A DNA stretch of 64,000 bases from an uncultured Sphingopyxis sp. (GCA_964426485.1 CAYRQX010000015.1:7899-71898), one strand, 5' to 3'; numbered from the stretch's first letter, positions 12,616 through 37,964 are shown. The notes: generated by a model not told the origin, from the sequence alone. Numbers and translations are program-made.

Positions 12616-13005
12616 ATGGCGGCTTTGGGGTGGAAAGCGGTCACGACGCCTCCTATGCTGGGGCATGGCTAAGCAAGACCCCGAATATCTAAAGAATCAA
12701 AGTCGCAGGGGACATGCTAGATATCGCTGGTACCGCGCCTATCTAAATGCAGTTACTATAGTTTGGACTGCGTTGTTCGGAGTCCTCTTTCTGATCGCTT
12801 TTGCAGATCGCATAACGGGATCGGAATGGGGCTTTGAAAGTTACATGTGGGAATTCGTGGGCTTCCTTGGTTTCGGACTGGGCGCTTGGATTTTCAACAC
12901 GCTGATACAGAAGCTGATATTAGCATACGTCCGACATACCTACGGTCCAGAACCGATCGACTGACAGCCCCGGAACGTCCGCAACCGGTCGTGAGCGGCC
13001 ATTCC
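12616..13005 (+). mobile_element. Putative hairpin-bounded mini-cassette (L end, orphan gene, R end)
   Basis: L: ATGGCGGC-TTT-GGGGTGG-AAA-GCGGTCA (12616-12643). R: CGTCCGC-AAC-CGGTCG-TGA-GCGGCCA (12976-13001). They enclose a low-GC ORF. Mobility is inferred, not shown. Confidence 0.5.
12665..12964 (+). CDS. Orphan two-TM membrane protein, low GC
   Basis: 99 aa with two hydrophobic segments; 144/300 = 48% GC by hand count versus about 65% in the flanks. Confidence 0.65.
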   Translation: MAKQDPEYLKNQSRRGHARYRWYRAYLNAVTIVWTALFGVLFLIAFADRITGSEWGFESYMWEFVGFLGFGLGAWIFNTLIQKLILAYVRHTYGPEPID

Positions 13006-13022
13006 CGGTCAGGCGCCCGCAT

Positions 13023-13694
13023 CTAAGCCGCCCGTGCGAACCAGATCACATGCCGCGGGCCTTTGCCATTGCTTCGGGCGCGCACGCCGACTTCTTCGAC
13101 CTGAAAGCCCGCCGCCGTCAGCCGCCGCGTGAAGCGCGCGTCGGGGGCCGCGGACCATATCGCCAGTATCCCGCCGGGGCGCAGCGCCGCCTTGGCCGCC
13201 GCGAGGCCCGCCACCGAATAGAGACCCTCGTTCGCCTCGCGCGTCAGACCATCGGGACCATTGTCGACGTCGAGCAGGATCGCGTCATAGCGGCGCGTCG
13301 CCCCGCCGATCGCTTTCGACACGTCGCCGAGGATCAGTTCGACCCGCGGATCGTCGAGGCAGCCCGCCGCCAGCTCGGCCATCGGACCGCGCGCCCATTC
13401 GATGATGCCCGGCACCAGCTCGGCCACGGCAATCTTTGCATCGGGGCCGAGCACCCCCAGCGCGGCGCGCAGCGTGAACCCCATGCCATAGCCGCCGATC
13501 AGCAGGCTACCCGCCTTCGGATTGCGCAGCCGGTCGCACGTCATCGTTGCCAGCGCTTCTTCGGAGCCGCTCATCCGGCTGCTCATCAATTCGTTGCGAT
13601 CGATCGCGATGATGAAATCGTCGCCGCGCCGGTACAGGCGCAGGGCGTCGCCGCCCGGCACCTCCGCCGTGCCGACCAGTTCGCGAATCTTCAA
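13023..13694 (-). CDS. Spermidine-synthase-like SAM-dependent methyltransferase fold protein
   Basis: ELMSSRMSGSEEALA, LIGGYGMGFT, AILLDVDNGP; proposed TTG start overlaps the astB stop (TTGA). Confidence 0.82.
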   Translation of the reverse strand: MKIRELVGTAEVPGGDALRLYRRGDDFIIAIDRNELMSSRMSGSEEALATMTCDRLRNPKAGSLLIGGYGMGFTLRAALGVLGPDAKIAVAELVPGIIEWARGPMAELAAGCLDDPRVELILGDVSKAIGGATRRYDAILLDVDNGPDGLTREANEGLYSVAGLAAAKAALRPGGILAIWSAAPDARFTRRLTAAGFQVEEVGVRARSNGKGPRHVIWFARAA

Positions 13695-14941
13695 TTCAGC
13701 TCGCCGAGGTCGAGCGTGTCGAGCAGCGCCGCACGCGCCTTGCGCACGTCGCCAGCCAGCGCCGCCGAGGCGAGATCGTCCGGCGTGATCGCTTCGGGCC
13801 AGTGCTTCGCTACAACATCCGATATCCGGTCGAGCTTCGCCGCGTCGGCGATGAAACGCGGGTCGACCGTAGCGGGATCGGCGACGACGCGCAGCCGCAG
13901 GCACGCAGGGCCGCCGCCATTCGCCATCGACTGGCGGACATCGACGGGCAGAAGGCGGCGGATCGGGCCGTTCCCAGCGACATGCGCCTCCAGCCATTGC
14001 CACACCGCGGGAATGGCTTGCGCCTCGGTCGGCAGCACCAGTCCCATGCCGCCGCCATCGGGCAGGCTGACGAGCTGCGCGTTGAACAGATAGGATTTGA
14101 TCGCGTCGGGCAGGCTCACCGCGCTTGCGGGCACCTCGACGATCTCGACCGCGGGAAAGGCGGCGCGGATTTCGGCATGCGCGCCCTCGCGGTCCTCGAA
14201 CGCCGTCTCATGGGTGAACAGCACATGCTCGTTCGCGACCGCGACGACGTCATTGTGAAACGCGCCGCCCTGGATCGCGCTGACCGATTGGCGGATAAAC
14301 AAAGTGCGCGCGGGGTCGAGCCGGTGGTGGCGCGCGATCGCCTTCGACGCGTCGAGATGCTGGCGCGCCGGGAAGCGGCCGCCGCCGACCCCGTAAACGA
14401 AGATTTCGACGCCCGCCGCGTCATGCCCGCTGCACAGCCGCATATGGTTCGCCGCGCCCTCGTCGCCGAAAGGCGCCGGGATCGGCGCATGGACGGTGAA
14501 AGCAGGGCCGGCGAAGGCAAGCCGAAGCTGCGCCAGCGTGCCCGGCCATTCGTGGCTGCGGTGCGGCATGGTGACGAGGTTCGCGACGGTCAGATGGCAT
14601 ATGCCGTCGGCGCTGTCGGGGGCGGGGGAGACGGTCGCGGCATTCGCGGCCCACATCGACGACGCCGACCAGGCCTGCGCGCGCAAATGCCCCTCGGCCT
14701 CCTCGGGCGCCGTGCCGAGCGTTTGAAGCCACGGCGTGTCGGGCCGGTCGAGCGGCATGAAAAAGCCCTGCGGCAGGCCGAGCGTCAGATTGTGGCGCAT
14801 CTTCTCGATGCCCTGCAACGCCGCGGCGCGCGGCTGTGACACGTCGCCGGCATGGCTCGCCGACGCGATATTGCCGCGGCTGAGTCCCGCATAATTGTGG
14901 CTGGGTCCGATGATCCCGTCGAAATTGATTTCGGTGAGCAT
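13691..14941 (-). CDS. astB: N-succinylarginine dihydrolase
   Basis: EINFDGIIGPSHNYAGLSRGN, SASSMWAANAATV, GDEGAANH, GAFHNDVVAV, SMANGGGPACLRLR. Start at ATG 14941. Confidence 0.95.
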   Translation of the reverse strand: MLTEINFDGIIGPSHNYAGLSRGNIASASHAGDVSQPRAAALQGIEKMRHNLTLGLPQGFFMPLDRPDTPWLQTLGTAPEEAEGHLRAQAWSASSMWAANAATVSPAPDSADGICHLTVANLVTMPHRSHEWPGTLAQLRLAFAGPAFTVHAPIPAPFGDEGAANHMRLCSGHDAAGVEIFVYGVGGGRFPARQHLDASKAIARHHRLDPARTLFIRQSVSAIQGGAFHNDVVAVANEHVLFTHETAFEDREGAHAEIRAAFPAVEIVEVPASAVSLPDAIKSYLFNAQLVSLPDGGGMGLVLPTEAQAIPAVWQWLEAHVAGNGPIRRLLPVDVRQSMANGGGPACLRLRVVADPATVDPRFIADAAKLDRISDVVAKHWPEAITPDDLASAALAGDVRKARAALLDTLDLGELN

Positions 14942-14942
14942 C

Positions 14943-15956
14943 TCAGCGCCCGATCCAGCTGATCTCGCCGCCCTTGCCAACGCCGAGCAGCTTTGCCGCC
15001 TCGCTATCGAGCGTCGAGCCCTCGCCGACCTTGCCGAAACAGCAGCGGAAATCGGCGAGCTGGCCCGTCGCGACCAGCGCATCGGCACCCCCAAGGTCGT
15101 CGGCGCCGGCGATGGCCGAAATCTCGACATGTTTCGCGTCGCGGACGCTCGCCACCTGATCCGTGCGTGCGGTCATCGTCGGGCCGCCGTCGAAGATGTC
15201 GACGTAATTTTCAAACGCGAAGCCCTCATTCTCCAGCATACGCATTGCGGCGCGCCCGGTCGGGTGCGGCACGCCGATGACGCTGCGCGCATGGTCGCTC
15301 AGCATCGCGATATAGACGGGGTGCTTGGGCATCAGATCGGCAATGAACTGGTTGCCGTGGACCGCGTTGAACTGATCGGCTTCCTGGAAATTCATGCCAA
15401 AAAATTTGCCCGCGACGCCGTCCCAAAAGGGCGAACCGCCCGCCTCGTCGATCACCCCGCGCAATTCGGCGAGGATGCGGTCGCCGAAGCGCGCGCGGTG
15501 GCGCGCGATGAACAGATAGCGCGAGCGCGCGAGCAGCAGCCCCAATCCGCCGGCACGCGCCGCGGGGTGCAGGAACAGCCCGCCGACCTCGCTCGCGCCG
15601 TTCAGGTCGTTGCTCAGCATCAGCACCTGCGCGTGAAAGGTGCGGTCGAGCTGTTCGCTATGCTTGCTGTCGGTGCCGATGCGATAGCTGTAGAAGGGCC
15701 AGCGCTGGCCGACCTGCCCGAAAATCTGGCAGGTGCCGCGCACTTCGCCGTTGTCGGTGTCTTCGAGCACGAGCAGGTAGAGCTCGTCCGACGGATATTC
15801 CTTGTCGCTCGCGAAGCTGGCTTGGGTGCGCTCCAGCTTGGCGGACAGCGCCTTCTTGTCGGGGGGCAGGTTGGTAAAGCCGCCGCCGGTCAGCTTCGCC
15901 ATCTCGTAAATGCTCTGCAGATCGCTTGGGCGTGCCGCCCGGATCACATAATTCAC
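14943..15956 (-). CDS. astA: Arginine N-succinyltransferase
   Basis: GGGFTNLP, SEVGGLFL, LLARSRYLF, AELRGV..GGSPFW, YVDIFDGGPT; GTG start overlaps the upstream stop. Confidence 0.92.
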   Translation of the reverse strand: MNYVIRAARPSDLQSIYEMAKLTGGGFTNLPPDKKALSAKLERTQASFASDKEYPSDELYLLVLEDTDNGEVRGTCQIFGQVGQRWPFYSYRIGTDSKHSEQLDRTFHAQVLMLSNDLNGASEVGGLFLHPAARAGGLGLLLARSRYLFIARHRARFGDRILAELRGVIDEAGGSPFWDGVAGKFFGMNFQEADQFNAVHGNQFIADLMPKHPVYIAMLSDHARSVIGVPHPTGRAAMRMLENEGFAFENYVDIFDGGPTMTARTDQVASVRDAKHVEISAIAGADDLGGADALVATGQLADFRCCFGKVGEGSTLDSEAAKLLGVGKGGEISWIGR

Positions 15957-17164
15957 ACCGTCCCCCGTTCCGCTATTCTTATCATGGTAAGTGCCGACAA
16001 TTGCGCGCGTTCGGGCAGACTGTCGACGATCAGAAATTCGTCCGACGAATGGATCGCGCCGCCGCGCGGCCCCATCGTGTCGACCACCGGCACGCCGCAC
16101 GCCGCGATATTATTGCCGTCGCACACGCCGCCGGTCGCGTTCCAGCTGATGGGAGGCAGGCCGAGCGCGGCGCCGCAGTCGCGCACCAGCTCGAACAGGC
16201 GCGTCGCCGCCGTATCGAGCGGTTTGGGCGGGCGGTTGAAGCCGCCATGGACATGGCAATGGACATCATGCTCGCGCGACACCGCGGCGATCGCGTTGCG
16301 CATCGCCGCTTCGGCGGCGGCCATGGCTTCGGGAGTCGACGGGCGCATATTGACGCGCAGGATCGCGCTGTCGGGGATGATATTGTTCGGGCCGCCGCCG
16401 TCGATCTTGGCAGGATTGACCTTCAGCGTGTCGGACTTCAGTGCGCCGAGTCGCAGCGCGAGGTCGGCGGCGGCGAGCAGCGCGTTGCGCCCGTCCTGCG
16501 GATTGCGCCCGGCATGCGCGGCGCGGCCGTGGACGATGACTGAAAAATTGCCGCTCCCCGGCCGTGCCCCCGCCAGCGTGCCGTCGGGCAGCGCGGGTTC
16601 GTAAGTCAGCGCCGCGGTCTTGCCTTTCGCAAGTTCGGCGATCAGCGCCGCCGACGCCTGGCTCCCCGTTTCCTCGTCGCTGTTGATCATCACGTCATAG
16701 CCGACGCGGCCCGCGAGCGGCGATGCCTCCAGTGCCGTCAGCGCCGCGAGGATCACCGAAATGCCCGCCTTCATGTCAGCGGTGCCGGGGCCGTTGAGCA
16801 CGCCGTCTTCCAGCCATTTCAATGTCTGGAACGGATGGTCGGCGGCGAAAACCGTGTCCATATGCCCGGTCAGCAGCAATTGCACCGGCGCCTCGGGCCG
16901 CACGCGCACATGCAGATGGTCGCCGCGCTGGATTGGGTTGACGGTGCCGGAACTGTCGACGCTTTCGACCGGATCGGCGGCAACCAGCCGGACCTCGCCG
17001 GGCAGCACCGCAAAAGCATCGGCAAGCTGGCCCGCGACGGTTTTCAATCCGGCAAGATTGCCCGTGCCGCTGTTGATCGCGGCCCATCTCTCGACCTGCG
17101 ACAGCATCGGCGCATCGGCCGCGCGCTCCAGCATCGCATTTTCTGTCGCGGTGAGATTGACCAT
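15953..17164 (-). CDS. M20-family metallohydrolase
   Basis: LTGHMDTVF, GPGTADMKAG, NSDEETGS, GRAAHAGR, GGVCDGN, HSSDEF zinc-binding motifs. Confidence 0.9.
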   Translation of the reverse strand: MVNLTATENAMLERAADAPMLSQVERWAAINSGTGNLAGLKTVAGQLADAFAVLPGEVRLVAADPVESVDSSGTVNPIQRGDHLHVRVRPEAPVQLLLTGHMDTVFAADHPFQTLKWLEDGVLNGPGTADMKAGISVILAALTALEASPLAGRVGYDVMINSDEETGSQASAALIAELAKGKTAALTYEPALPDGTLAGARPGSGNFSVIVHGRAAHAGRNPQDGRNALLAAADLALRLGALKSDTLKVNPAKIDGGGPNNIIPDSAILRVNMRPSTPEAMAAAEAAMRNAIAAVSREHDVHCHVHGGFNRPPKPLDTAATRLFELVRDCGAALGLPPISWNATGGVCDGNNIAACGVPVVDTMGPRGGAIHSSDEFLIVDSLPERAQLSALTMIRIAERGTV

Positions 17165-17356
17165 GGGGTGGCTATAGCGAGCGCCGACGGGCTTTTGCAC
17201 CCCCCGGGTCTATTTTGTCGTCGCTGTGCCGCACGTCACTCCCCTGGGGCGCTCGTTTGGATAAGGCAGTGATAGAATTGCACCGAATCGCAACGCATTA
17301 ACCGAAAGTTCGGAACAGCCTCGTTACGCTGGCCGAACCGATAAGCGAGTGAGCCG

Positions 17357-18532
17357 ATGACGACCGCCTTTGTGCTTGGCATCAATATGTCCGTTGCCGG
17401 CATTTTTGCCGTGGCGTTCGCTGTGGTCGCGGCGACGAACCGCGGCGCGCGCGGTGCGCGCTGGCTTGCGGCCGGCTATGGCATGGGCATCGTCTATGTC
17501 GCGCTCGAGTTCATCCTGACGCGGCAGGTCGACCCGACTCCCGTCGGGATCGGTATTTTCCTCGTTTTTCTGCTCGCGCTCAGCTTTGCATTGGTCGGCA
17601 TCGCCCATCATTATCGGGCGCGGCCGCCATGGGGCGCAATGGCGGCGATCTGGGTCGTCACGATCCTTGCTGTGCCGGTGATCTTCAGCTTGACCTATGG
17701 CTCGACGCTGCGGCTGACGCTCTACCAGCTGCCCTATTTTGCCATGCAGACGCTGCTCGGGTTTATGATCTGGCGTTCGGGTCGGCGCCAGGCGCTGGAC
17801 CTGCTGCTGATCGCGCTGCAGGGGATCGCGGCAGCGATCTACCTCGCCAAACCCTTTATCGCGTCGATCGTCGGGACGGCAAGCGCGCCGCAGGGCTATA
17901 TGGCGACGACCTATGCCGCCATTTCGCAGAGCGGCAGCGTCGTCACCCTCATGGCCATCGCCCTCGTCATGCTGCTCGTGATCATGCGCGACACCACGGC
18001 AGAGATGGTGGCGCGTTCCGAAACCGATCCGCTTTCGAGCGTGCTCAACCGCCGCGGTTTCGAACATCATGCCGAACTTGCGCTGCTGCGCGGCGCCGAT
18101 GCGGCGGTGCTCGTCGCGGCCGACCTCGACGATTTCAAGAAGATCAACGACAGCTTCGGCCACGCCGCAGGCGACGGGGTCATCGCGCATTTCGCCGCGA
18201 TGCTGGTCGATGCGGCGCCGGCGGGCGCGATCGTCGGCCGGGTCGGCGGCGAAGAATTTGCGGTCCTCATTCCCGATGCGCTGCTGTCCGACGGCCGCCT
18301 CTATGCCGAAACCGTGCGCATGACCTTCGCCGCGGCGCAATTGCCGGTGCTTGGAGTCGACCGGGGGTTTACGGCGTCGTTCGGCGTGGCTCAGCGCACC
18401 TCGGACGATTCGCTGTTCGATCTGTCGCGCCGCGCCGACGCGGCGCTGTACCGCGCCAAGGCGGGTGGGCGAAATCAGGTTCGCGTTGCGCTGGGCGAAT
18501 TGGCACCGATGCCCGCCGTCGGGGTGGGCTGA
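17357..18532 (+). CDS. Membrane-bound diguanylate cyclase (GGDEF domain)
   Basis: About 7 TM segments, DPLSSVLNRR, DLDDFKKINDSFGHAAGD, RVGGEEF, ADAALYRAK. Confidence 0.93.
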   Translation: MTTAFVLGINMSVAGIFAVAFAVVAATNRGARGARWLAAGYGMGIVYVALEFILTRQVDPTPVGIGIFLVFLLALSFALVGIAHHYRARPPWGAMAAIWVVTILAVPVIFSLTYGSTLRLTLYQLPYFAMQTLLGFMIWRSGRRQALDLLLIALQGIAAAIYLAKPFIASIVGTASAPQGYMATTYAAISQSGSVVTLMAIALVMLLVIMRDTTAEMVARSETDPLSSVLNRRGFEHHAELALLRGADAAVLVAADLDDFKKINDSFGHAAGDGVIAHFAAMLVDAAPAGAIVGRVGGEEFAVLIPDALLSDGRLYAETVRMTFAAAQLPVLGVDRGFTASFGVAQRTSDDSLFDLSRRADAALYRAKAGGRNQVRVALGELAPMPAVGVG

Positions 18533-18533
18533 G

Positions 18534-18833
18534 TCAGACCGCGAGCAGCGGTGTGTCTTCCTCGCGCGGCGGCGCGGGTTCGAATCCGGGCAGGGGATCG
18601 AATTCTTCTTCGATCAGTTCGATCGACGCCAGCCCGCCCAGCTTGAAATGGCCCAGCCGCGGATCCTCGTCGGACCGCCAGCTCTTGTTCAAATTGAGCG
18701 CGCTGATGAACAGGTCGCCGCGCCGTTCGAACAGCAGGTGCGGCGCCAGCGTCAGGGTCTGGCCATTATATTGGGCCGTGACCTTCCGCTTGCGGGCAAT
18801 CGCCTCCATCAATTTCAGTCGCGTGTCATCCAT
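18534..18833 (-). CDS. Small stand-alone WYL-like domain protein
   Basis: AIARKRKVTAQYNG...LAPHLLFERRGDLF...GHFKLGGLASIELIEEEF resembles the WYL pattern (Y..., vxPxxl, FxlxrI..l..F); no HTH domain. Confidence 0.6.
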   Translation of the reverse strand: MDDTRLKLMEAIARKRKVTAQYNGQTLTLAPHLLFERRGDLFISALNLNKSWRSDEDPRLGHFKLGGLASIELIEEEFDPLPGFEPAPPREEDTPLLAV

Positions 18834-19036
18834 GCTTCAAGGCCGTTCGGGGAGGAAAGATTCTGTTGTGCGTTGCAGCATAATGCACATGCGGACCAAG
18901 TGAGCAAGCGCAGAATGGCTGAAAACCTATGCGTCAAATGGCACCCATTGCCAATCGAAACCAATCGCGGCATAGGGCGGCGGCCCTTTCCTCCCCGGGT
19001 CCACTGGCGCAGCCGCGCCGACCAGAGGGTGCTTGC

Positions 19037-21145: not shown

Positions 21146-21522
21146 TGCTGTCCGCTTCGTGTCTTTGCGGCGCGACGCGATACACATTGTCGGGCCCGAT
21201 CGACGAGGTGGTGCTGTGCCAGTGCGGTCAGTGCCGCCGCGCCAACGGTGGAGCGTTCAACGTGGCGGTTCTGGCCGATGCGGCTGACGTTGCGTTCGAT
21301 GCACGCGACGCCGTTTGCGAATATGAAAGCTCGCCGGGCAAATATCGCGCCTTCTGCTCGGGATGCGGCGCGCCCGTCTACAGCCGCCGCGACGACTCGC
21401 CCGGCATACTCCGTCTCCGCGGCGGATTGATCGACGCGCTGCCCGCCCCGCGCCGCCTCACCGTAAGCCACCGCGCCGACGGCTGGGACTGGATAGCGGG
21501 CGTCGAGGGAAGGGACGGCTGA
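21145..21522 (+). CDS. GFA family (CENP-V-like) protein
   Basis: SCLCGA...CQCGQCRR...FCSGCG zinc motifs; start overlaps the glcB stop. Confidence 0.85.
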   Translation: MLSASCLCGATRYTLSGPIDEVVLCQCGQCRRANGGAFNVAVLADAADVAFDARDAVCEYESSPGKYRAFCSGCGAPVYSRRDDSPGILRLRGGLIDALPAPRRLTVSHRADGWDWIAGVEGRDG

Positions 21523-21660
21523 CGACCCGAAGCGGACCTATCCTTCATTCGTCACCCCGGACTTGATCCGGGGTCCATGACTGCAGCGCTGCCGTGGATC
21601 CCGGATCAAGTCCGGGATGACGAATGATGGGTACGTCCGCCACCCACCCCTTTCCCGCCG
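21512..21660 (-). repeat. Composite element: L hairpin + CGTC-type REP doublet + R hairpin (copy 1)
   Basis: 46-bp near-perfect arms 21532-21577 and 21595-21640 (CGTCACCCCGGACTTGATCCGGGG type) with a 17-nt loop; flanked by GGGGTGG-core and GGGTCG-core short hairpins. Confidence 0.9.
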
Positions 21661-21736
21661 CTTCCATACAATACGCCTTGCCTTCACCCCTTATAGTCCG
21701 GCATTTTGCGGCATGCGCAAACCGGGGGGCAGGGTG

Positions 21737-23752: not shown

Positions 23753-23780
23753 AACCCAATCGCGCCTACATGGCGCGCGC

Positions 23781-24506: not shown

Positions 24507-24510
24507 GCGA

Positions 24511-24675
24511 GCGACGGGTTCGGGGTGGATTGCAGACGGTCCCCTCTATTTCCGTTCGTGTCGAGCGAAGTCGAGACACCCCGAAGGCGCGCGCTACCGA
24601 TGGGTGTCTCGACTTCGCTCGACACGAACGGGATTTAGAAGGCGGTTTGTCCGCAACTGGTCGACGGTGGACATC
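24511..24675 (+). repeat. Composite element: L hairpin + REP doublet (second family) + R hairpin
   Basis: Perfect 30-bp arms CCGTTCGTGTCGAGCGAAGTCGAGACACCC (24552-24581 and 24602-24631); L end 24512-24538, R end 24648-24673. Confidence 0.88.
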
Positions 24676-24736
24676 GCGGGACGTCGTTGACGAGAGAGGC
24701 ATTGCGCGCGCCTCTCTCCCGCCCCACGTTTGCAAT

Positions 24737-27145: not shown

Positions 27146-27229
27146 GGCAGTGCGGCGCATCCGGCGTTTCGCTTGCTGCGATGGCGGATGAGGCGTAGAT
27201 TGCGTCCAAACATAATGAGGATGCCAGCG

Positions 27230-28264: not shown

Positions 28265-28312
28265 GGGGCGAGGCCGCTTGCGGCGGGGCGCCGCCGCAGC
28301 CATAGCGGGCGG

Positions 28313-29029: not shown

Positions 29030-29188
29030 CGGCTAAGCCACGTCGAAGAGGCGATTTTCTGCCTGTGGCCAAAAAGCATCACCCGACCAAAAACGACGGT
29101 AATACGGGCCTTGCGCTGGATTGGCTGCGCAATTGAGTTATGCTCTCCCGGCAACAAAAATAAATAAATGTTGAGAGGAGTGCCCGAT

Positions 29189-32005
29189 ATGAAATCATCT
29201 TCCCTTCGTGCTGCCCGTTTTTTGCGCACCAGCGCCCTCGGCGTATCGCTTGCCATCGCTGCCGTCGCCGCACCGGCCTATGCGCAGGATGCGCCGGCCG
29301 ACACCGCAACCGACGACAGCGACGACACCCCGATCATCGTCACCGCGCAGGGCCGTTCGCAGCTGCTATCTGACGTCCCCGTCGCCATTTCGGCAGTCAG
29401 CGCCGAAACGCTGCAAAACAGCGGCGCGAACGACATTCGCCAGCTGAACCAAGTCGCGCCGTCGCTGCTCGTTTCGTCGACCGGTTCGGAAGCCAATGGT
29501 TCGGCGCGTATCCGCGGCATCGGTACGGTCGGTGACAATCCCGGCCTCGAAAGCTCGGTTCCTGTCTTCATCGACGGCGTTTATCGCTCGCGTTCGGGCA
29601 TCGGCCTCAACGAACTGGGCGAACTCGACCGGATCGAGGTCCAGCGCGGCCCGCAGGGCACGCTCGGCGGGCGCAACTCGTCGGCGGGCCTCATCAGCAT
29701 TTATTCGAAGAAGCCCGATTTCAACTTTGGTGCCACCGGCGAAGTGACCTATGGCAATTATGATTATTGGCGCCTCGGCGGCAGCGTCACCGGCCCGATC
29801 GGCGAGACGCTCGCCGCGCGGCTCGACGGCGTCTGGGTCAAGCGCGACGGTTTCTACAACGACACTGCGAACAACCGCGACGTCAACAACCGCGACCGCT
29901 ATTTCCTACGCGGACAATTGCTGTTCGAACCGACCGATGCGCTGTCGGTCCGCCTGATCGCCGACTATACGTCGCGCGACGAGGAATGCTGCGCGGCAAC
30001 CTATGTCGGCCCGACGGTCAATCCCTATATCGGCAATCTCAACACGCCGAGCCCCGCCAATGCGCCGACCGCGACGACGAACAACATCATCCGCGTGCTC
30101 GCCGATCTCGGCCAGCCGCTGTCGGCGTTCAACCAGGGTTACAGCCGCGATATCTCGGTCACCCCGGGGCGTAGCTTCGCCGGCAAGACCAAGGATTACG
30201 GCTTTTCGGGGCAGATCGATTATGATTTCGGCGGCGCGACGCTGACCTCGATCACCGCCTATCGCGAATATCGGTCGAGCCAGGCTGGCGACGTCGATTA
30301 TGGCGCGGTCGATATCCTCTATCGCGCGCCCGACGCCGACGCTTATCGCCAGTTCCACACCTTTACGCAGGAACTGCGCCTGCAGGGCGAAGCGTTTGAC
30401 GGCAAGCTCGACTGGCTCGTCGGCGGCTTCTACGCGGATGAAAAGCTGCGGGTGCGCGACAATCTGCGCTTCGGTGAGGATTATGGCCGGTTCGCGGCAT
30501 GCCGCCTCATCACCGGCACGCCGCTGGCGGGCCTATATTCGCCGACAAACCCGTCATGCATCATTCCCGGCGTCGGCCCGGCGACGATCGCCGCTGCAAA
30601 CGGTCCGTCCGGCCCGGATATCGTCGCGGCGCTGACCGCGCTCGACGGCCTGAGCGATCTCGGCAGCATCAACGACGTCTATCGCCAGAATGGCAAGAAT
30701 TGGGCGTTGTTCACGCACAATATCCTCCACATCACCGACAAACTCGATTTTACCTTCGGTGTCCGTTACACGAACGACAAGAAGAAATTCTCGGCGACGT
30801 TCACCAACGACAATACGGTGTGTACGACGGTTCAGGGTCTGGTGCTCGACGATGCGGCGCAGCCCGATATTCCAGGCACCGCCGACAATTTGGCGCGCGC
30901 CGTCGCGGGCGGCCTGATCGGCCTCGCCTGTCAGGGCAATTCGACCGCCGAGCTCAACAATGTGTCGATCAACGACCAGCGCAGCGAGGACGAATGGACC
31001 GGCACCGCGATCCTTTCGTACAAGCCGATCGACGACCTGATGGTCTATGCAAGCTATTCGCGCGGCTACAAAGCGGGCGGCTTCAACCTCGACCGCTCGG
31101 CGCTGAAATCGCCGATCCTGCCCTTCGCGGCGGCCGGCGGAGCCCAGGCGCTGGTCAGCAATCTGCAGTTCGATCCGGAAAAGGTCGACAGCTATGAAAT
31201 CGGCGCCAAATATGCGACCGGCCCGTTCGGCCTTGGCCTGACCTTCTTCCGGTCGGATTTCTCGAGCTTCCAGCTCAACACGTTCAACGGCACGGTCTTT
31301 CTTGTCCAGAACATCAACGGCTGCGACAGCGACCTGAACGGCGGCGACCGCGACCAGAGCAAGTTCACCGGAGCCCCGAACTTCAACGCGGCCGCGGGAT
31401 CGACCGGTGCCTGCGCCGCCGACGACGTCAGCCACGGCGTCCGGTCGCAGGGCTTCGAACTCGAAGCCTCGCTCGTCCCGGCGCGCGACTTCCGTATGAC
31501 CGCGGGCCTGACATATGCGCAGACCAAATATCGGGGACAGCTGGTCGGCAACAATTCCGGCGCGCCCCTCGATCAGGCGCTGCGCCTGCTGCCCGGCAAC
31601 AATCTGTCGAACGCGCCCGAACTGGTCGCGACCGGCAGCGTCGCCTGGACGCCCGACATTGGCAGCGGCGGCCTTTCCGGACTCGTCTATTTCGATGGCC
31701 GTATGACCAGCGATTACAACACCGGGTCCGACCTGTTCCCGCAAAAGGCGCAGGACGGCTTCGCACTGTTCAACGCGCGCATCGGCATTCGCGGTCCCGA
31801 CGAGAAGTGGGGCATCGAATTCTGGGGGCAGAATATCTTCAACAAGCAATATGCCCAGGTCGCGTTCAACTCCCCGTTCCAGGAAGGCGGCACCTCGGCG
31901 ACCACCGCCTTCGCCGACCCGCAATATCCGGGCGGCCGCCAGATCTTCTCGCAGTTCCTTGCCGAGCCGCGGACCTATGGCGTGACGCTGCGCGGCAAAT
32001 TCTAA
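29189..32005 (+). CDS. TonB-dependent receptor (paralog 1)
   Basis: Signal peptide, IIVTAQ TonB box, plug motif EVQRGPQGTLGGRN, GYKAGGFN, C-terminal PRTYGVTLRGKF; GAGAGGAG RBS. Confidence 0.95.
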   Translation: MKSSSLRAARFLRTSALGVSLAIAAVAAPAYAQDAPADTATDDSDDTPIIVTAQGRSQLLSDVPVAISAVSAETLQNSGANDIRQLNQVAPSLLVSSTGSEANGSARIRGIGTVGDNPGLESSVPVFIDGVYRSRSGIGLNELGELDRIEVQRGPQGTLGGRNSSAGLISIYSKKPDFNFGATGEVTYGNYDYWRLGGSVTGPIGETLAARLDGVWVKRDGFYNDTANNRDVNNRDRYFLRGQLLFEPTDALSVRLIADYTSRDEECCAATYVGPTVNPYIGNLNTPSPANAPTATTNNIIRVLADLGQPLSAFNQGYSRDISVTPGRSFAGKTKDYGFSGQIDYDFGGATLTSITAYREYRSSQAGDVDYGAVDILYRAPDADAYRQFHTFTQELRLQGEAFDGKLDWLVGGFYADEKLRVRDNLRFGEDYGRFAACRLITGTPLAGLYSPTNPSCIIPGVGPATIAAANGPSGPDIVAALTALDGLSDLGSINDVYRQNGKNWALFTHNILHITDKLDFTFGVRYTNDKKKFSATFTNDNTVCTTVQGLVLDDAAQPDIPGTADNLARAVAGGLIGLACQGNSTAELNNVSINDQRSEDEWTGTAILSYKPIDDLMVYASYSRGYKAGGFNLDRSALKSPILPFAAAGGAQALVSNLQFDPEKVDSYEIGAKYATGPFGLGLTFFRSDFSSFQLNTFNGTVFLVQNINGCDSDLNGGDRDQSKFTGAPNFNAAAGSTGACAADDVSHGVRSQGFELEASLVPARDFRMTAGLTYAQTKYRGQLVGNNSGAPLDQALRLLPGNNLSNAPELVATGSVAWTPDIGSGGLSGLVYFDGRMTSDYNTGSDLFPQKAQDGFALFNARIGIRGPDEKWGIEFWGQNIFNKQYAQVAFNSPFQEGGTSATTAFADPQYPGGRQIFSQFLAEPRTYGVTLRGKF

Positions 32006-32029
32006 GCACCGGCGAATACAGGACTATCG

Positions 32030-32063
32030 GGGGCGGAGCACAGGCTGTTCCGCCCCCTTTCTT
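32030..32063 (+). terminator. Rho-independent terminator after TBDR1
   Basis: GGGGCGGAG...TTCCGCCCC stem followed by TTTCTTT. Confidence 0.75.
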
Positions 32064-32242
32064 TGCCAGGGCCAAGTCAACCCGTCACATCCGACAGCTG
32101 TGACATAAATGACGCGGCGCGCCGGACAAATATGTTGTGGAAAGGGCTTGCGCTGGCTTGGCGCGGCCCGGTCATGATAGGCTGCCGCTCAAATAGAATA
32201 TCGTGACGCTCTCCCGCGAAAAACACCTGTGGAGGAGGGCCC

Positions 32243-35053
32243 ATGACCATGAAAGACCGTTCGCGCCATATCCGCCTGCTGCGTAGCTGCGCCGCGGGCC
32301 TGCCGATTGTCCTTGCCCTGTGGGCCGTGCCTGCCACGGCGCAGGATCCGGGCGCCCAGCAAAACGACGAGACGATCATCGTGACCGCGACGCGGCGCAG
32401 CGAGGCGCTGTCCGACGTCCCGATCGCGGTCTCCGCGGTCACCGGCGAGACGCTGGAAAAGACCGGCGCGACCGACGTGCGCGCGCTGGGACAGGTCGCG
32501 CCGTCGCTGCTGGTGTCGGGCGCGACGAGCGAGGTCAATTTTTCGGCGCGCATCCGCGGCATCGGCACGGTCGGCGAGAACCCCGGCCTCGAATCGTCGG
32601 TCGGCCTGTTCATCGACGGCGTCTATCGCAGCCGCACCGGCGTCGGTCTCTCCGAACTCGGCGACATCGAGCGCGTCGAGGTGCTGCGCGGGCCGCAGGG
32701 CACGCTGTTCGGCCGCAACTCGACTGCGGGGCTGATCAACATCGTCACCAAAGGCCCCGAGCTCGGCCGCTTCGGCGCCAAGGGTTCGATATCCTATGGC
32801 AATTATGATTATTGGCGCGTCGACGGCATGATCAATGCGCCGCTGGGCGACAAGGTGGCGGCGCGCATCGACGGCGTATGGCAGAAACGCGACGGTTTCA
32901 TCGACAATGCGACGCCCGGCGAACCCGACATCAACGACCGCGACCGCTGGCTGGTGCGCGGGCAGCTGCTGTTCGAACCGAGCGAGACGATGAAATTCCG
33001 CCTGATCGCCGATTACAGCAAGCGCAACGAAAATTGCTGCGGCGGCGTCCTGCTGAACCCCGTCCGTAATCTGGCGCGCGGAGCCGACGGCTTTCCCGTC
33101 GCATCGGCGAACAGCTTGTTGCCGATCCTGCAGACACTGGGCGCGAACCATCAGGTCGCGCCGGCGGGAACGCCCTTTGTCCGGCGACAGGCGACGACGC
33201 CCGGGGTCACCTATCGCTCGGACACCAAAGACTGGGGCGTTTCGGGCGAGCTGGGCTGGGAGCTCGGCGCGGCGACATTGACCTCGATCACCGCCTATCG
33301 CGATTACCGGAATGCGCAGGGCCAGGACGCCGATTTCAGCGCGCTCGACATCCTTCGCCGGACCGACCTCGACCGCCGGTTCCGGCTGTTCACGCAGGAA
33401 GTCCGGTTGCAGGGCGAGGCGTTCGACGGGCGGCTCGACTGGCTGGTCGGCGGCTATTATGCGAACGAGAAACTCGATGTCGACGACGATATTGTTTACG
33501 GCAACAATTACGAACAATTCGCCAACTGCCTGCTCTTCGCAAGCGCGTTGCCGACTGCGGTGCTGCCGTCGAACGCGTCGTGCGTCAACGTGCCGGTGGT
33601 CCAGGGGACGATTACCGCGCTGTCGGGATTGCCCGTCGGCGACCCGCGCCGCGCCTCGATCCCGCTGCTCACGGCGCTGATCGCCAATCCGGCGCGTCCG
33701 GGCTTCGGCTCGCTGGCCGCGGCGCTCGGCCAGCCGACGCTCGCGATCAACGGCACCGGCAATCAGGGATCGACCTTTGCGCAGCGCAGCCGCAACTTTG
33801 CGGTCTTTACGCACAACAGCTTCGACATCGTTCCCGACGTGCTGACCTTCACGATCGGCGCGCGCTATACAAGCGAACGCAAGACACTGGATGCCGACGC
33901 GAATTTCAACAATGCGATATGCCCGCTGATCGTCAATTCGCCCTTCCAGTCGCTCGCGACCTTGCCCTGCGTCATCAACGGCACCGCACCCGACCTGCCG
34001 CGCGGCAGCGCGGGCACGAAGTTCAAGGATAATGAATGGACCGGGACCGCGGTGCTCAGCTGGAAACCCGCCCCCGAATGGCTGGTCTATGGATCGGCGT
34101 CGAAGGGATATAAGGCGGGCGGCTTCAACCTCGATTTCTCGGCGCTCGACCGGACGTGCAACACCGCCTTCGACACCCTGTGCGCCGCGCGGCTGGCGGC
34201 GCCCGCCAACACCTCTGGTAACGGCCGGCCCGAGGCAAGCGACCTGCAATTCGCGAGCGAAAAGGTCGATGCCTATGAACTCGGGATCAAATGGGACGGC
34301 CCCGGGATCGACGTCAATGTCGCGGCTTTCTATCAGGAATATAGCAATTACCAGCTCAACACCTTCAACGGCGTCAATTTCGAAGTCACCAATATCCAGG
34401 CGTGCAAGGACGATCTGAACGGCGCCGACGCCGACGGGTCGGCGACGACCGGCGCTTGCCCGTCCGACCGGCTGAAACCGGGCGTGCGGTCGAAGGGGGT
34501 CGAGATCGAGGCGTTCCTGCGCCCCGCGCGATATGTGGCGGTCAATATGGGGCTGACCTGGGTCGACACGCTTTATCGCCGCAATCTGGTGGGCACGGGC
34601 GGGCGGGCGCTGTCGCCGGTGCTGTTCCAGCTTCCCGGCCGCGGCGTGTCGAACGCGCCGCGCTATGTCGCGACCGCGGGGATCAGCTGGACCCCGCCGA
34701 TCGGCAGCTCGGGGATGAGCGCGCTCGTCTATCTCGACACGCGCCTGCAAAGCGACACCAACACCGGGTCCGACCTCGACGTCGAAAAGGTCCAGGACGG
34801 CTTCGCGATCTTCAACGGCCGCATCGGCCTTTATGGGCCGGAGCGGCGCTGGGGGGTCGAAATCTGGGGCCAGAATCTGTTCAACAAGACATATTACCAG
34901 ATCGGCGCCGACATGCCGTTGCAGGGTGGCGGCACCTTCCGCGCCGTCGCGGCGCCCGCTTCTTCGGGGTTGGCAGGCACCGCGAACCAGCTGTTCGTCG
35001 GCTTCCCCGGCGAACCGCGGACCTACGGCATAACGCTGCGCGGCCAGTTCTGA
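32243..35053 (+). CDS. TonB-dependent receptor (paralog 2)
   Basis: IIVTATRR, EVLRGPQGTLFGRN, GYKAGGFNLD, C-terminal PRTYGITLRGQF; GGAGGAG RBS. Confidence 0.95.
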   Translation: MTMKDRSRHIRLLRSCAAGLPIVLALWAVPATAQDPGAQQNDETIIVTATRRSEALSDVPIAVSAVTGETLEKTGATDVRALGQVAPSLLVSGATSEVNFSARIRGIGTVGENPGLESSVGLFIDGVYRSRTGVGLSELGDIERVEVLRGPQGTLFGRNSTAGLINIVTKGPELGRFGAKGSISYGNYDYWRVDGMINAPLGDKVAARIDGVWQKRDGFIDNATPGEPDINDRDRWLVRGQLLFEPSETMKFRLIADYSKRNENCCGGVLLNPVRNLARGADGFPVASANSLLPILQTLGANHQVAPAGTPFVRRQATTPGVTYRSDTKDWGVSGELGWELGAATLTSITAYRDYRNAQGQDADFSALDILRRTDLDRRFRLFTQEVRLQGEAFDGRLDWLVGGYYANEKLDVDDDIVYGNNYEQFANCLLFASALPTAVLPSNASCVNVPVVQGTITALSGLPVGDPRRASIPLLTALIANPARPGFGSLAAALGQPTLAINGTGNQGSTFAQRSRNFAVFTHNSFDIVPDVLTFTIGARYTSERKTLDADANFNNAICPLIVNSPFQSLATLPCVINGTAPDLPRGSAGTKFKDNEWTGTAVLSWKPAPEWLVYGSASKGYKAGGFNLDFSALDRTCNTAFDTLCAARLAAPANTSGNGRPEASDLQFASEKVDAYELGIKWDGPGIDVNVAAFYQEYSNYQLNTFNGVNFEVTNIQACKDDLNGADADGSATTGACPSDRLKPGVRSKGVEIEAFLRPARYVAVNMGLTWVDTLYRRNLVGTGGRALSPVLFQLPGRGVSNAPRYVATAGISWTPPIGSSGMSALVYLDTRLQSDTNTGSDLDVEKVQDGFAIFNGRIGLYGPERRWGVEIWGQNLFNKTYYQIGADMPLQGGGTFRAVAAPASSGLAGTANQLFVGFPGEPRTYGITLRGQF

Positions 35054-35057
35054 CCGT

Positions 35058-35133
35058 CTCTCCCGCTCTCCGCTTTGGGGAGGGCGTAGGGAGGGCCTGC
35101 CGCGGCCGGGCACTGTCGCGTCAGGCCCTTTCC
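35058..35133. repeat. Degenerate REP-like hairpins (CTCTCCC...GGGAGGG type)
   Basis: GCTCTCC-GCTTT-GGGGAGGGC plus GGAGGGCCTG...CAGGCCCTTTCC. Confidence 0.35.
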
Positions 35134-35407
35134 TTTTCCGGCCCTTTCCTCTTCCGATTGTGTGGACGAGGAGCCCGAAACCGAGCCGACCCCAGAAGCA
35201 GAATCCGCCGCAATGACGATCTGACGCGACGGCGAAAACGGCGATGGGCGCCCCAATTTCCCGCCGCCGCAAGACTATGTCGGCATCGAGGAAGGTCCGT
35301 TCGCTGACGAGGACTATGCACGCGCGCTCGACGTCACCGAGGAAGCGGCTTGGAAGCTGCGGATGACCTTTGGCAAGTTGTTAAAACCATTGCCGTAAAG
35401 CCGAAAC

Positions 35408-36040
35408 ATGCCCGCCCACAATGGCACGATTGCAGGGGAAAGAGCCTCCTTGCTCGCACGCTTTCGCCGCGAGCCGGTGGGTCTCGTCTATTCGCGTGCA
35501 CCAGGCGGCGAGGGGCGGCTGATCAGCGAGGAGGAGGCTGTCGCGCTGCTCGTGGAGTTTGACCTGATGTCGCACGTCCACGCACGCCGCTTTTCATATT
35601 CGGTTTGGATCGCTGTGATAGGGTTTCCGCTCTTTATCGGCGCGGGTATGACCCTCACGCCACTATTCGGACTTGCGGCGTTGGTATCGTTTGTCGGATG
35701 GTTCATCGTCGCGCTCGTTCAGCGGCTGCAACGGGCGCGGTTCGTTTCCCGCATATGGTCGCGGCTCGACCGCAACCCACCCGTGCGGGCACTCTCGCGA
35801 TCGGAGAAGCTTGCACGCGGTTTCACAATCCCGTGGTGGCAAACCGCGCTCATTTTATTGACCGTCGGCCCCTTTGCCTTGTTCGTTCAGGCGCCAAAAA
35901 ACGCCCTGCCTCAACCTTGGCGCGAGTGGCAGACGATTGCCATCGCTTTCGTCTTTGTAGCTGTCATCGTCATATTGGCAGTGCATGGCGTCCGGTGGTT
36001 GCTTCACCGTACCACGGACAGGCCGTCGGGACGGCGATAA
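35408..36040 (+). CDS. Orphan four-TM membrane protein
   Basis: 210 aa with two pairs of TM helices; many A/T-ending codons; start uncertain. Confidence 0.6.
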   Translation: MPAHNGTIAGERASLLARFRREPVGLVYSRAPGGEGRLISEEEAVALLVEFDLMSHVHARRFSYSVWIAVIGFPLFIGAGMTLTPLFGLAALVSFVGWFIVALVQRLQRARFVSRIWSRLDRNPPVRALSRSEKLARGFTIPWWQTALILLTVGPFALFVQAPKNALPQPWREWQTIAIAFVFVAVIVILAVHGVRWLLHRTTDRPSGRR

Positions 36041-36115
36041 CCCGCTGCCCGCCAGCAGCGTCTGCTAATCGGTGGAAGGCTGCCCCCTCAACTGACTCGG
36101 GACCGTCACTCCATC

Positions 36116-36742
36116 CTACACCGCCACGCGCGCCGCGCCATATTCGTACCAGCCGAACGGCCGCGGGGTTTTCGGGATATAGGCGGCGGCTTGCCGGTCG
36201 ACGGCAAAGCCCGCCTTTTCATAGGCATCGGCGATCGGCCGGGTCAGGTGGCAATTGCCGCCGATGCGCCTCCACACCGGTTCGATCCGCCGCTGCCATT
36301 TCGCGACCGCGGCGTCGGGCGCGGCGCCATGCTCCAGAAACAGCGCGGTCCCGCCGGGTTTCAGCACGCGGCGGATCTCGCTCAGCACCGCCGCCTGATC
36401 GTCCACCGAGCACAAGGTAAATGTCGTCACCACCGTATCGAACGACCCGCTCGCGAACGGCATGGCCTCGCCGATCCCTTCGCGGATATCGGCCTCGATC
36501 CCGCGCGCCGCCGCCGCCGCGACGCTCATCGCGAGCAGTTCGGGCGACGGATCGAGCCCGCTGAAACTCTCGATCTGCCCCGGCCGGTAAAATTCCATGT
36601 TGATCCCGCCGCCGCAGCCAAGCTCGAGCACATGGCCGCGCGCGTGCGGCACGACCTTGCTGCGCACCTTCATGATCTGCCCCTGCGAACAGGCGCATTT
36701 GATCAGCCGCGGCACCCCATGACGTTCCCACCAGCTTGCCAT
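36116..36742 (-). CDS. Class I SAM-dependent methyltransferase
   Basis: VLELGCGGG, FDTVVTTFTLCSV, RVLKPGG..LFLEHG, GNCHLTR. Confidence 0.92.
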   Translation of the reverse strand: MASWWERHGVPRLIKCACSQGQIMKVRSKVVPHARGHVLELGCGGGINMEFYRPGQIESFSGLDPSPELLAMSVAAAAARGIEADIREGIGEAMPFASGSFDTVVTTFTLCSVDDQAAVLSEIRRVLKPGGTALFLEHGAAPDAAVAKWQRRIEPVWRRIGGNCHLTRPIADAYEKAGFAVDRQAAAYIPKTPRPFGWYEYGAARVAV

Positions 36743-36836
36743 TTGCCAGTCTCCCCTTGGCGCGGAAGGTGACCCTTGCTAGCGCGGTTGGCAACACCCA
36801 TTTGTGCTTGTCCGCACAGCTCTTTGAAAGACCGTC

Positions 36837-37802
36837 ATGCCCAGCGTTCACCACACCAAGATGCTCATCCTCGGCTCCGGCCCGGCCGGCCTGTCGGCCG
36901 CCATTTATGCCGCGCGCGCGGGCATGATGCCGATCGTCGTGCAGGGGCTGCAACCCGGCGGCCAGTTGACGATCACCACCGACGTCGAAAACTACCCCGG
37001 TTTTGCCGAGGTGGTGCAGGGCCCCTGGCTGATGGAACAGATGACGGCGCAGGCGATGCATGTCGGCACCAGCATGATCTGGGACACGATCGTCGATGTC
37101 GACCTGTCGCGCCGCCCGTTCAAGCTGACCGGCGACGGCGGCGACGTCTATATGGCCGAAACGCTGGTGATCGCGACGGGCGCGCAGGCGAAATGGCTCG
37201 GCGTTCCGGGCGAGCAGGAACTGGGCGGCAAGGGCGTGTCGGCGTGCGCGACGTGCGACGGTTTCTTCTATCGCGGCAAAAAGGTCGTCGTGATCGGCGG
37301 CGGCAACCCCGCTGTTGAGGAGGAGCTCTACCTCACCAACCACAGCGAAGACGTGACTTTGATCCACCGCCGCGACCATCTGCGTGCCGAAAAGATCCTG
37401 CAGGATCGGTTGCTGGTCAACCCGAAGATCAAGGTTCTTTGGAACAAGCGCGTCGATCGTTTCGTCGCGGGCGAAGGCGTGTCGGGGCTCGTCGGCGTCG
37501 ACCTGATCGACACCGTCACCGGCGAGGCGAGCTTTGAGCCCACCGACGGCGGTTTCGTCGCGATCGGGCACAGCCCGTCGACCGAGCTGTTCAAGGGCAA
37601 GCTGCCGCTCGACGCCGACGGCTATCTGGAAGTGACGCCGGGCACGTCGTTGACCTCGATTCCGGGCGTGTTCGCGGCGGGCGATGTGACCGACAAGATC
37701 TATCGTCAGGCGGTGACCGCGGCGGGTATGGGCTGCATGGCGGCGCTGGATGCCGAGCGGTTTTTGGCTGAGGCGGAGTATCACGCGATGGCGGACGCCT
37801 GA
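36837..37802 (+). CDS. trxB: Thioredoxin-disulfide reductase
   Basis: GSGPAGLSAA, GGQLTITTDVENYPG, SACATCDGFF, HRRD, FAAGDV..YRQAVTAAG. Confidence 0.96.
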   Translation: MPSVHHTKMLILGSGPAGLSAAIYAARAGMMPIVVQGLQPGGQLTITTDVENYPGFAEVVQGPWLMEQMTAQAMHVGTSMIWDTIVDVDLSRRPFKLTGDGGDVYMAETLVIATGAQAKWLGVPGEQELGGKGVSACATCDGFFYRGKKVVVIGGGNPAVEEELYLTNHSEDVTLIHRRDHLRAEKILQDRLLVNPKIKVLWNKRVDRFVAGEGVSGLVGVDLIDTVTGEASFEPTDGGFVAIGHSPSTELFKGKLPLDADGYLEVTPGTSLTSIPGVFAAGDVTDKIYRQAVTAAGMGCMAALDAERFLAEAEYHAMADA

Positions 37803-37812
37803 GGCGACACTG

Positions 37813-37964
37813 TAACGGCGGGAAGCGACCCGAAGCGGAGCTATCCTTCATCGTCACCCCGGACTTGATCCGGGGTCCATGACTGCAGCGCTGCCGTGGA
37901 TCCCGGATCAAGTCCGGGATGACGAATGATGGGTACGTCCGCCATCCACCCCAAACCAGACATC
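37813..37964 (-). repeat. Composite element: L hairpin + CGTC-type REP doublet + R hairpin (copy 2)
   Basis: Near-identical to 21512-21660 over about 120 bp, including the loop TGACTGCAGCGCTGCCG. Confidence 0.9.

Follow-up and report, generated by a model that had tools for sequence, protein, structure and literature searches.

The window analysed here is a stretch of 64,000 nucleotides (C15:7899-71898) from the 4.43-Mb draft genome (64% GC) of an uncultured Sphingopyxis sp., and four of its intergenic regions carry a pair of short, imperfectly palindromic DNA sites, termed L and R, that enclose one module of interchangeable DNA. We propose that small non-autonomous modules are bounded by L on the left and by R on the right, and that their cargo would be exchanged at the cores of the two sites by an enzyme encoded in trans, and we put the chances of this reading at about even. 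What lies between L and R is a single module, namely a doublet of hairpin repeats of the Ssn type, a 295-bp repeat termed D, or one compact orphan gene of low GC content that may point in either direction.

Each site is an imperfect palindrome about 29 bp long, and the two follow a common plan, with arms of the ATGTCsGC type placed around an asymmetric core. The L consensus, AtGnCGGC-TTT-GGGGTGG-GrA-GCGGACrT, is composed of a G-arm, the core GGGGTGG and an inverted C-arm, and the R consensus, AyGTCCGC-(AAY or TTC)-YGGTCG-nnn-sCsGnC-ATTC, of a C-arm, the core YGGTCG and an inverted G-arm. The information contained in the sites extends from 11 nt 5' of GGGGTGG to about 15 nt 3' of GGTCG, and the flanks beyond these borders are random. 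At the level of the consensus the outer arms (ATGnCGGC and GCCGnCAT) form one pair of inverted repeats and the inner arms (GCGGAC and GTCCGC) a second pair, which places a central mismatch inside each site, G.G in L and C.C in R. Arm complementarity is a property of the consensus only, with 5.7 of 8 and 4.8 of 8 positions paired. Read from this consensus, the 11-7-11 layout of L and the 11-6-11 layout of R may represent those of recombinase core sites, which would consist of two kinds of half-site arranged in opposite order at the two ends. The original prediction, which was derived from the window alone, had placed four L and four R motifs, and a direct reading of the sequence confirmed the positions of all eight (Table 1).

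Using nhmmer profiles (E<=1.3), we counted 66 L and 43 R sites in the genome. A regular expression for the L core and its 3' arm returned 52 sites genome-wide, about 42 of which clearly belong to one family, and the exact L pattern with 16 specified bases, TTTGGGGTGGNNNGCGGAC, occurs in 18 copies, while the same pattern read backwards as a control has no match in the genome. The order L before R, which had been posed as a testable property, proved to be general: all 30 neighbouring pairs separated by less than 1.2 kb have L before R on one strand and none shows another order or orientation, an outcome with a chance probability of about 4^-30 if the four possible arrangements are taken as equally likely. 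Among 113 loci collected from other genomes, L precedes R in 28 cases and follows it in 3, and those of the latter that were read (L023 and L053) are junctions between consecutive units. Complete Sphingopyxis genomes, for which the counts were obtained with a slightly looser pattern than the exact one, contain 5-39 L sites each and never the backwards pattern. A scan of 185,579 species genomes yielded more than 113 exact L matches, almost all of them in Sphingopyxis records, and one to three L copies are present in 11 of the 112 other Sphingomonadaceae genera sampled, the backwards control giving one match. The L/R family is abundant in Sphingopyxis and sporadic in the rest of the Sphingomonadaceae.

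Long palindromes of several families follow 28 of the 66 L sites of the genome, 21 of these 28 with a detected R, and the D repeat follows 8 and other sequence the remaining 30. By our own count, about 17 of these 30 other units combine a low GC content (0.49-0.57 vs 0.64 for the genome) with a small open reading frame (ORF); in the units read, the ORFs code for 80-210 amino acids (aa) in either orientation and begin or terminate no more than a few tens of bases away from the sites. The cargo genes are mostly orphans. Only one of the ten cargo proteins tested from this genome has a significant Pfam family, a UPF0167/CbrC protein; in another genus, the sole cassette protein put to this test is a WapI-like immunity protein, and several cargo proteins appear by eye to have signal or lipoprotein-like N-termini. 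ORF99, the protein-coding cargo of the first locus of the window (locus 1), belongs to no Pfam family and by eye contains hydrophobic central stretches, and its unit has a GC content of 0.50 vs 0.64 for the genome. ORF99 is a real gene, with 15 homologues of 47-90% identity.

The palindromic cargo of loci 3 and 4 consists of copies of one family (A), which is represented by 11 near-identical copies in the genome, while locus 2 carries a palindrome of another family (C) that recurs in C74, C35, C61, C63 and C136. The two kinds of hairpin cargo had been described as unrelated doublets of repetitive extragenic palindromes (REP), and this distinction between locus 2 and loci 3 and 4 stands; for loci 3 and 4, however, the cargo was known before, being made up of two exact and inverted matches to the Ssn-related motif (SRM), a published repeat class (Chenal et al. 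2025, PMC11893778). The SRM search pattern, HGTCWYN(0-2)YYVSBRHN(0-5)WNVSBRGN(0-2)RNCYNB, matched neither L nor R nor the family C palindrome. The genome further encodes five small GIY-YIG (Ssn-like) proteins (C13:78206-78424, C40:8853-9071, C71:10945-11157, C63:3798-4007 and C110:2161-2376), the genes of which are each bracketed by an inverted hairpin repeat of their own, belonging to differing sequence families as in Ssn/SRM systems, and have no L or R within 1.5 kb.

The D repeat is present in at least 17 genome copies of 91-97% identity (BLAST), each of which is followed by a different module, and D-like copies also occur in other Sphingopyxis species. At least eight loci show the arrangement L-D-L. 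One of them is locus 1, in which D is opened by a fifth, degenerate L (L') at 12340-12368 and ends in the L at 12616, so that the locus as a whole reads L'-D-L-ORF99-R; both the degenerate L and D had been overlooked before. Other D copies possess a canonical GGGGTGG at the position of the degenerate L' core. Neither a conserved ORF nor an Rfam match was found for D. Its 3' end is GTAGGAAAGCACTTTTTTCAAAGGCGG, the opposite strand of which resembles a -35/-10 promoter (TTGAAA...TACATT).

The proposal that the units are non-autonomous and carry cargo is supported by the occurrence of the same unit in unrelated flanks, by cargo swaps and empty loci, and by arrays of units. Homologues of ORF99 are found in three metagenome contigs (L147, L148 and L150) with unrelated gene neighbourhoods, these being Band_7 and ribulose-phosphate epimerase genes, PEPCK and peptidase genes, and a contig end. 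The sequence GGGGTGG-AAA-GC upstream of the gene is kept in all four contexts (the window and the three contigs), and the outer 5' arms differ. For the homologues in L147 and L148, L is located upstream and a recognisable R downstream; for the more distant homologue in L150, L is degenerate and R not recognisable. Likewise, the unit on C25, which encodes a 149-aa membrane protein, has a counterpart in S. terrae NBRC 15098; identity is 88.6%, beginning at the L arm and reaching to CGGTCG, and the flanks are unrelated. In the paralogous cassettes C52 and C116 of this genome the common sequence begins at GGGGTGG, with none upstream of it. Among copies with bodies of 91-98% identity, the outer arms and the three bases beside the cores vary, so that the recently shared unit runs from core to core, the outer arms acting as a part of the locus instead.

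Cargo swaps are apparent where different cargo follows the same L at orthologous flanks (C116 compared with L043 and L123, C27 with L065, C2a with L032 and C4 with L028). Empty-site alleles had been anticipated in relatives, and the orthologues of loci 1, 3 and 4 are indeed empty or otherwise filled there. Locus 1 measures about 790 bp here vs 13 bp in genome G035 and holds a different insert of 524 bp in G042. Locus 3, upstream of a GMC oxidoreductase gene, is empty in six relatives, and other relatives hold different L-containing mosaics at this place; the flank outside the 5' arm of its L is common to relatives that lack the unit. At locus 4, between trxB and a hydrolase gene, the stop codons of the two genes abut in at least six relatives and others carry other repeats. 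The small zf-UBP gene beside locus 1 (window 11925-12226, minus strand) is variably present as well. In G013 and G033 the upstream gene is joined directly to the methyltransferase gene, with a gap of 9 bp in G013 and of 166 bp in G033, so that the zf-UBP gene may belong to the variable segment. A further repeat family (TCTCTGCATTCTCTGCGCCTCTGCGCGAATC...) was noted both inside one cargo unit (C27:23600-23760) and at the hot spot upstream of the GMC gene of a relative (G005, L011).

Units of this genome are mostly single and not arrayed. Elsewhere, an R followed by a conserved linker of ~33 nt and an L joins consecutive units (L023, L053, L098 and L147), giving short arrays of two to three units in L023, L053 and L147. 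In G199, a member of another Sphingomonadaceae genus, a series of this kind comprises five single-gene cassettes in both orientations (L153:900-4100), which are split by R-linker-L junctions of ~125 nt with several copies of AATGTCCGC. The cargo of this array codes for the WapI-like immunity protein, a rhomboid-like membrane protein, an 84-aa protein, a lipoprotein and a 159-aa protein. The array itself is flanked by a ring-hydroxylating dioxygenase gene on one side and by an Mrr-like/AbiE-like defence region on the other.

We infer from this pattern that an enzyme encoded in trans would cut at the two cores and thereby move and exchange the modules. The reaction would most simply be a conservative site-specific recombination in which L would recombine with L alone and R with R alone, the two sites being heterospecific. 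Cassette exchange would then result from recombination of L with L together with R with R, and L-D-L from the integration of a circle with a single L at another L. Recombination at heterospecific sites is the model that covers most of the observations, as it would explain the strict polarity, the core-to-core homology and the outer arms linked to the locus, and also the central G.G and C.C mismatches, because each site pairs a G-arm with a C-arm. In its widest form, the proposal is that Sphingopyxis and some other Sphingomonadaceae possess an undescribed gene-cassette exchange system, a natural recombinase-mediated cassette exchange, in which a recombinase other than IntI would act in trans and swap orphan genes and hairpin repeats between dozens of slots scattered over the chromosome, and in which single orphan genes for immunity-like, membrane and secreted proteins would be packaged between L and R. 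We offer this wider claim tentatively and rate it as possible but on the unlikely side.

Several results speak against exchange at L and R by such an enzyme. Searches for IntI, Y1 and Y2 proteins and nearby recombinases identified no enzyme for L and R. Tyrosine recombinase genes lie near L in 2 of 113 loci vs about 4 expected from their density in the genomes, that is without enrichment, and no recombinase gene is found within 12 kb of the array in G199, where a 119-aa fragment with weak similarity to integrases is encoded ~7 kb upstream. Neither an excision product or circle nor a convincing hybrid site of the attB-like (TTTGGGGTCG) or attP-like (GTCCGC-TTC-YGGTGG) kind was found. Unoccupied sites of the form arm-TTT-nnn-arm were not found either; insertion into the loop of such a pre-existing hairpin was considered and rejected, as the matches to this form are chance occurrences in coding sequence or one ordinary terminator. 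Covariation of the arms specific to the individual units does not exceed that of shuffled controls for any of four alternative pairings (z 0.5-1.4), in a set of loci ascertained with a fixed 3' arm. In the paralogous cassettes C52 and C116 the arm and the triplet of R differ, and the right boundary is hence less well defined than the left. Finally, as regards the expectation that junctions would map exactly to the hairpin edges, the empty orthologous sites do not end precisely at the edges of L and R, an imprecision that can be attributed to the compared species being only about 85% identical.

The absence of a mobilising enzyme from the window had been noted before, and indeed no enzyme gene is present in the window or next to the other copies. 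With TIGR02249, no IntI was detected in this genome, in four other Sphingopyxis genomes or in G199 (best score 101 bits vs a cut-off of 265 bits), and a direct reading of L, R and the R-linker-L junctions revealed no RYYYAAC/GTTRRRY cores. An identity of L and R with sites of XerCD was rejected too. A canonical candidate for the chromosomal dif site, ATATCCGATAA-TATATA-TTATGTTAAAT, is located at about 76930 on the minus strand of C9; L and R share at most 7 of 11 positions with its XerC arm and none convincingly with its XerD arm. In genome G101, from another genus, two divergent L sites bracket a gene for an XRE-type regulator and one for a 416-aa tyrosine integrase (L152:2011-4166), the stop codon of the latter being 6 nt from an L. 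This integrase was rejected as the enzyme in question, given that homologues exist in only 2 of 41 Sphingopyxis genomes and that the one copy inspected has a tRNA gene next to it and no L, and it is treated as a coincidental island integrase.

Some of the above would also be expected if L and R were ordered palindromic repeats within a passive mosaic, comparable to the bacterial interspersed mosaic elements (BIMEs) of E. coli and the Neisseria intergenic mosaic elements (NIMEs), that occupies intergenic hot spots and spreads through homologous recombination and transformation, perhaps under the influence of Ssn nucleases recognising the hairpin cargo, and needs no dedicated enzyme. The loci are general hot spots, which in relatives are occupied by other repeats and lack L and R; SRM makes up the palindromic cargo, the five GIY-YIG genes are present in the genome, and the enzyme for L and R was not found; furthermore, in Neisseria transformation is modulated by NTS and SRM repeats, which form clusters around genes (PMC11893778). 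We nevertheless consider this explanation unlikely, since the same gene keeps the L core and the 3-nt spacer in unrelated contexts of different genera and metagenomes, which homologous recombination driven by the flanks cannot produce, and since the homology breaks at the cores and the polarity from L to R is absolute. An explanation at the RNA level, with the units being terminators, stabilisers or small RNAs that flank genes and are conserved for expression control, appears hardly credible to us. The proximity of the units to stop codons and the T-run of D fit with it, but the orientation of the units relative to their neighbours varies, as does that of the cargo genes relative to the direction from L to R, no T-tract follows L or R, and the units have no match in Rfam.

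Mobility by transposition has to be weighed for two types of enzyme. The original prediction had pointed to HUH enzymes acting on single-stranded DNA (ssDNA) hairpins, in which case L and R would be the end hairpins of non-autonomous elements resembling palindrome-associated transposable elements (PATEs) or rolling-circle elements, mobilised by transposases of the IS200/IS605, REP-associated tyrosine transposase (RAYT) or IS91 type. Two differing, polar ends of similar hairpin design, the lack of a target-site duplication and the constant left flank GC-TTT agree with such a mechanism. The only Y1 HUH gene of the genome (PF01797, C13:40702-41031) is a RAYT gene, however, that is flanked by AATAAATAGGGACnGTCCCTATTTATT and not by L and R. 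As this RAYT is embedded in a REP family of its own that is unrelated to L and R, the latter are not its REPs, and no cognate Y1 enzyme was found. The REP-RAYT system itself occupies C13:40367-41170 (a 231-aa frame), and its AT-rich AATAAATAGGGACnGTCCCTATTTATT palindromes exist in 53 genome copies, often as pairs about 60 nt apart. As to Y2 enzymes, an IS91-family element on C91 (8439-10537, locus L180) encodes a 301-aa tyrosine recombinase and a 397-aa Y2 transposase, and its left end abuts, immediately past a terminator, ATGTCGGCTTT, which corresponds to the outer arm of L together with TTT. GTCGGCTTT precedes the element in this genome and also in G002 and G038, and an R-core-like GGTCGTAGCTAGCCGCG (GGTCG-TAG-CTAGCCGCG) follows its right end in G002; the copy in G010 has different flanks. 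The sequences inside the ends of the IS91 element are unrelated to L and R, and we rejected its Y2 transposase as the enzyme for L and R, since the gene is present in 15 of 41 genomes of the genus and absent from the richest in L, namely G011 (39 L), G006 (20), G047 (18), G007 (12) and G042 (11). The element is intriguing as a lead only. Moreover, the hairpins lack support from covariation, and no linkage of L orientation to the replichores was evident in six complete genomes, in which the origin was assumed to lie near coordinate 1. Folded as ssDNA, the R-linker-L junctions close an outer stem between the left part of R and the right part of L and are modestly better than shuffled sequences (z -0.7 to -2.9). 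The mechanism by ssDNA hairpins was not supported, and we judge HUH transposition in general to be quite improbable. The second type of enzyme would be a DDE transposase of an insertion sequence (IS) acting in trans on a classical miniature inverted-repeat transposable element (MITE) or mobile insertion cassette (MIC), with the outer 8-bp arms (ATGnCGGC ... GCCGnCAT) as terminal inverted repeats. These arms are inverted repeats at the consensus level, and MITE-like elements that carry cargo (MICs) are known. No target-site duplication was found (the longest shared direct k-mer is 4.62, and 4.62 +/- 0.17 for pairs that were shuffled), and this speaks against a DDE transposase; copies that are nearly identical in other respects differ in their outer arms, and no IS with such ends was seen in a search that was not exhaustive. 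We regard this origin as very improbable.

Returning to modules that would be exchanged at L and R, we compared them with characterized systems of similar organization. The closest functional parallels are integron cassettes and the dif modules of Acinetobacter plasmids, the latter being bounded by pdif sites for XerCD (PMC6449649, PMC13141974). Dif modules and L/R units are both discrete modules with arbitrary cargo that recur in different contexts, are delimited by short imperfect palindromes with half-sites in opposite order at the ends, contain no enzyme gene and cause no target-site duplication. The L/R units differ in that their sites do not resemble the candidate dif and have cores of 7 and 6 nt that are not the same at both ends, and in that they are chromosomal, dispersed, 0.1-0.9 kb in size and often hold only a hairpin repeat. 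Integron cassettes, which rely on IntI, attI and attC, share with them the compact single-gene format, the mostly orphan cargo and arrays with conserved junction sites, and the R-linker-L junction can be drawn like a folded attC, with paired boxes, an unpaired spacer and a variable loop. Unlike integron cassettes, the units come without IntI and without RYYYAAC/GTTRRRY cores, lie in both orientations and mostly as single dispersed copies instead of in a single array beside an integrase gene, and their junctions fold only weakly better than shuffled ones. To our knowledge, integrons are reported to be lacking in Alphaproteobacteria.

In form, BIME/NIME mosaics and the Ssn/SRM repeats come nearest. 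With BIMEs and with NIMEs, which are RS blocks flanked by dRS3, the L/R units have in common short palindromic units in a fixed relative order, interchangeable repeat blocks and an intergenic location; palindromic blocks follow L in the 28 of 66 cases given above and the family A cargo is itself SRM, whereas L and R are not matched by the SRM or dRS3 motifs. We know of no BIMEs or NIMEs that bracket protein-coding genes, and cargo of this kind goes beyond their definition. PATEs and REPINs of the IS200/IS605 and RAYT type resemble the units in being non-autonomous, in lacking target-site duplications and in having end-specific hairpin-like sites, and differ by the missing cognate Y1 enzyme, the different REP around the RAYT gene and the absence of covariation and strand bias. 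MICs and cargo-carrying MITEs are similar in that passenger genes between conserved ends are mobilised in trans, and differ in that the L/R units lack target-site duplications and have cores that are not the same at the two ends. Since each of these systems fails in a defining feature (dif sites, IntI/attC, coding cargo, SRM match, Y1 or target-site duplication), we place the L/R units among the site-bounded modules, with L and R as sites of their own. In the literature searched, we found nothing on REP, MITE or cassette elements of Sphingopyxis and no description of L and R themselves.

If exchange at L and R is true, bacteria would have a second route, not linked to an integrase, to shuffle single genes among many chromosomal slots, which would explain the siting and spread of many Sphingopyxis orphan genes. 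The connection of Ssn hairpin repeats to a defined bracket of L and R would offer a handle on how such repeats are placed, and for cassette exchange in Alphaproteobacteria a heterospecific pair of sites plus a small host factor would have practical interest too. Taken only as a family of mosaic repeats, L and R still form a pair that is undescribed and sharply defined, which annotators should mask, treating the bracketed small genes as real.

The features of the four loci are compiled in Table 1. It had also been stated that each unit has one end within about 20 bp of the stop codon of a neighbouring gene, which was confirmed for loci 1, 2 and 4.

Table 1. L and R sites, cargo and associated repeats in the window (positions counted from the first nucleotide of the window)
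Feature	Position	Strand	Basis or remark
L', degenerate L site (TTCCGC-TTT-GGCGTGG-TGA-GCCGCC)	12340..12368	+	Direct reading; nhmmer L match of 12 bits; opens the D repeat
D repeat, ~295 bp, L-type cores on both sides (L-D-L)	12343..12640	+	BLAST
L, locus 1: ATGGCGGC-TTT-GGGGTGG-AAA-GCGGTCAC	12616..12644	+	Direct reading, nhmmer
Cargo gene ORF99, locus 1, 99 aa	12665..12964	+	
R, locus 1: ACGTCCGC-AAC-CGGTCG-TGA-GCGGCC-ATTC	12975..13004	+	
L, locus 2	24510..24539	+	Begins 4-6 nt past the stop codon of the trhO-like (UPF0176/rhodanese) gene
Cargo, locus 2: long family C palindrome (CCGTTCGTGTCGAGCGAAGTCGAGACACCC...)	24540..24646	+	SRM search pattern not matched
R, locus 2: TTGTCCGC-AAC-TGGTCG-ACG-GTGGAC-AT	24647..24674	+	
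L, locus 3	21633..21662	-	Upstream of the GMC oxidoreductase gene
Cargo, locus 3: family A palindrome, inverted doublet of two exact SRM	21540..21632	-	SRM matches at 21550+ and 21594-
R, locus 3: AGGTCCGC-TTC-GGGTCG-TCA-GCCGTC	21512..21539	-	
L, locus 4	37935..37963	-	18 nt past the hydrolase stop codon
Cargo, locus 4: family A SRM doublet	37843..37934	-	98% identical to the cargo of locus 3
R, locus 4: AGCTCCGC-TTC-GGGTCG-CTT-CCCGCC	37815..37842	-	

A hairpin that is short and rich in GC (GAGAGAGGCATTGCGCGCGCCTCTCTC) was observed at window positions 24690-24730, directly 3' of the R of locus 2 and upstream of the lhr-like gene.

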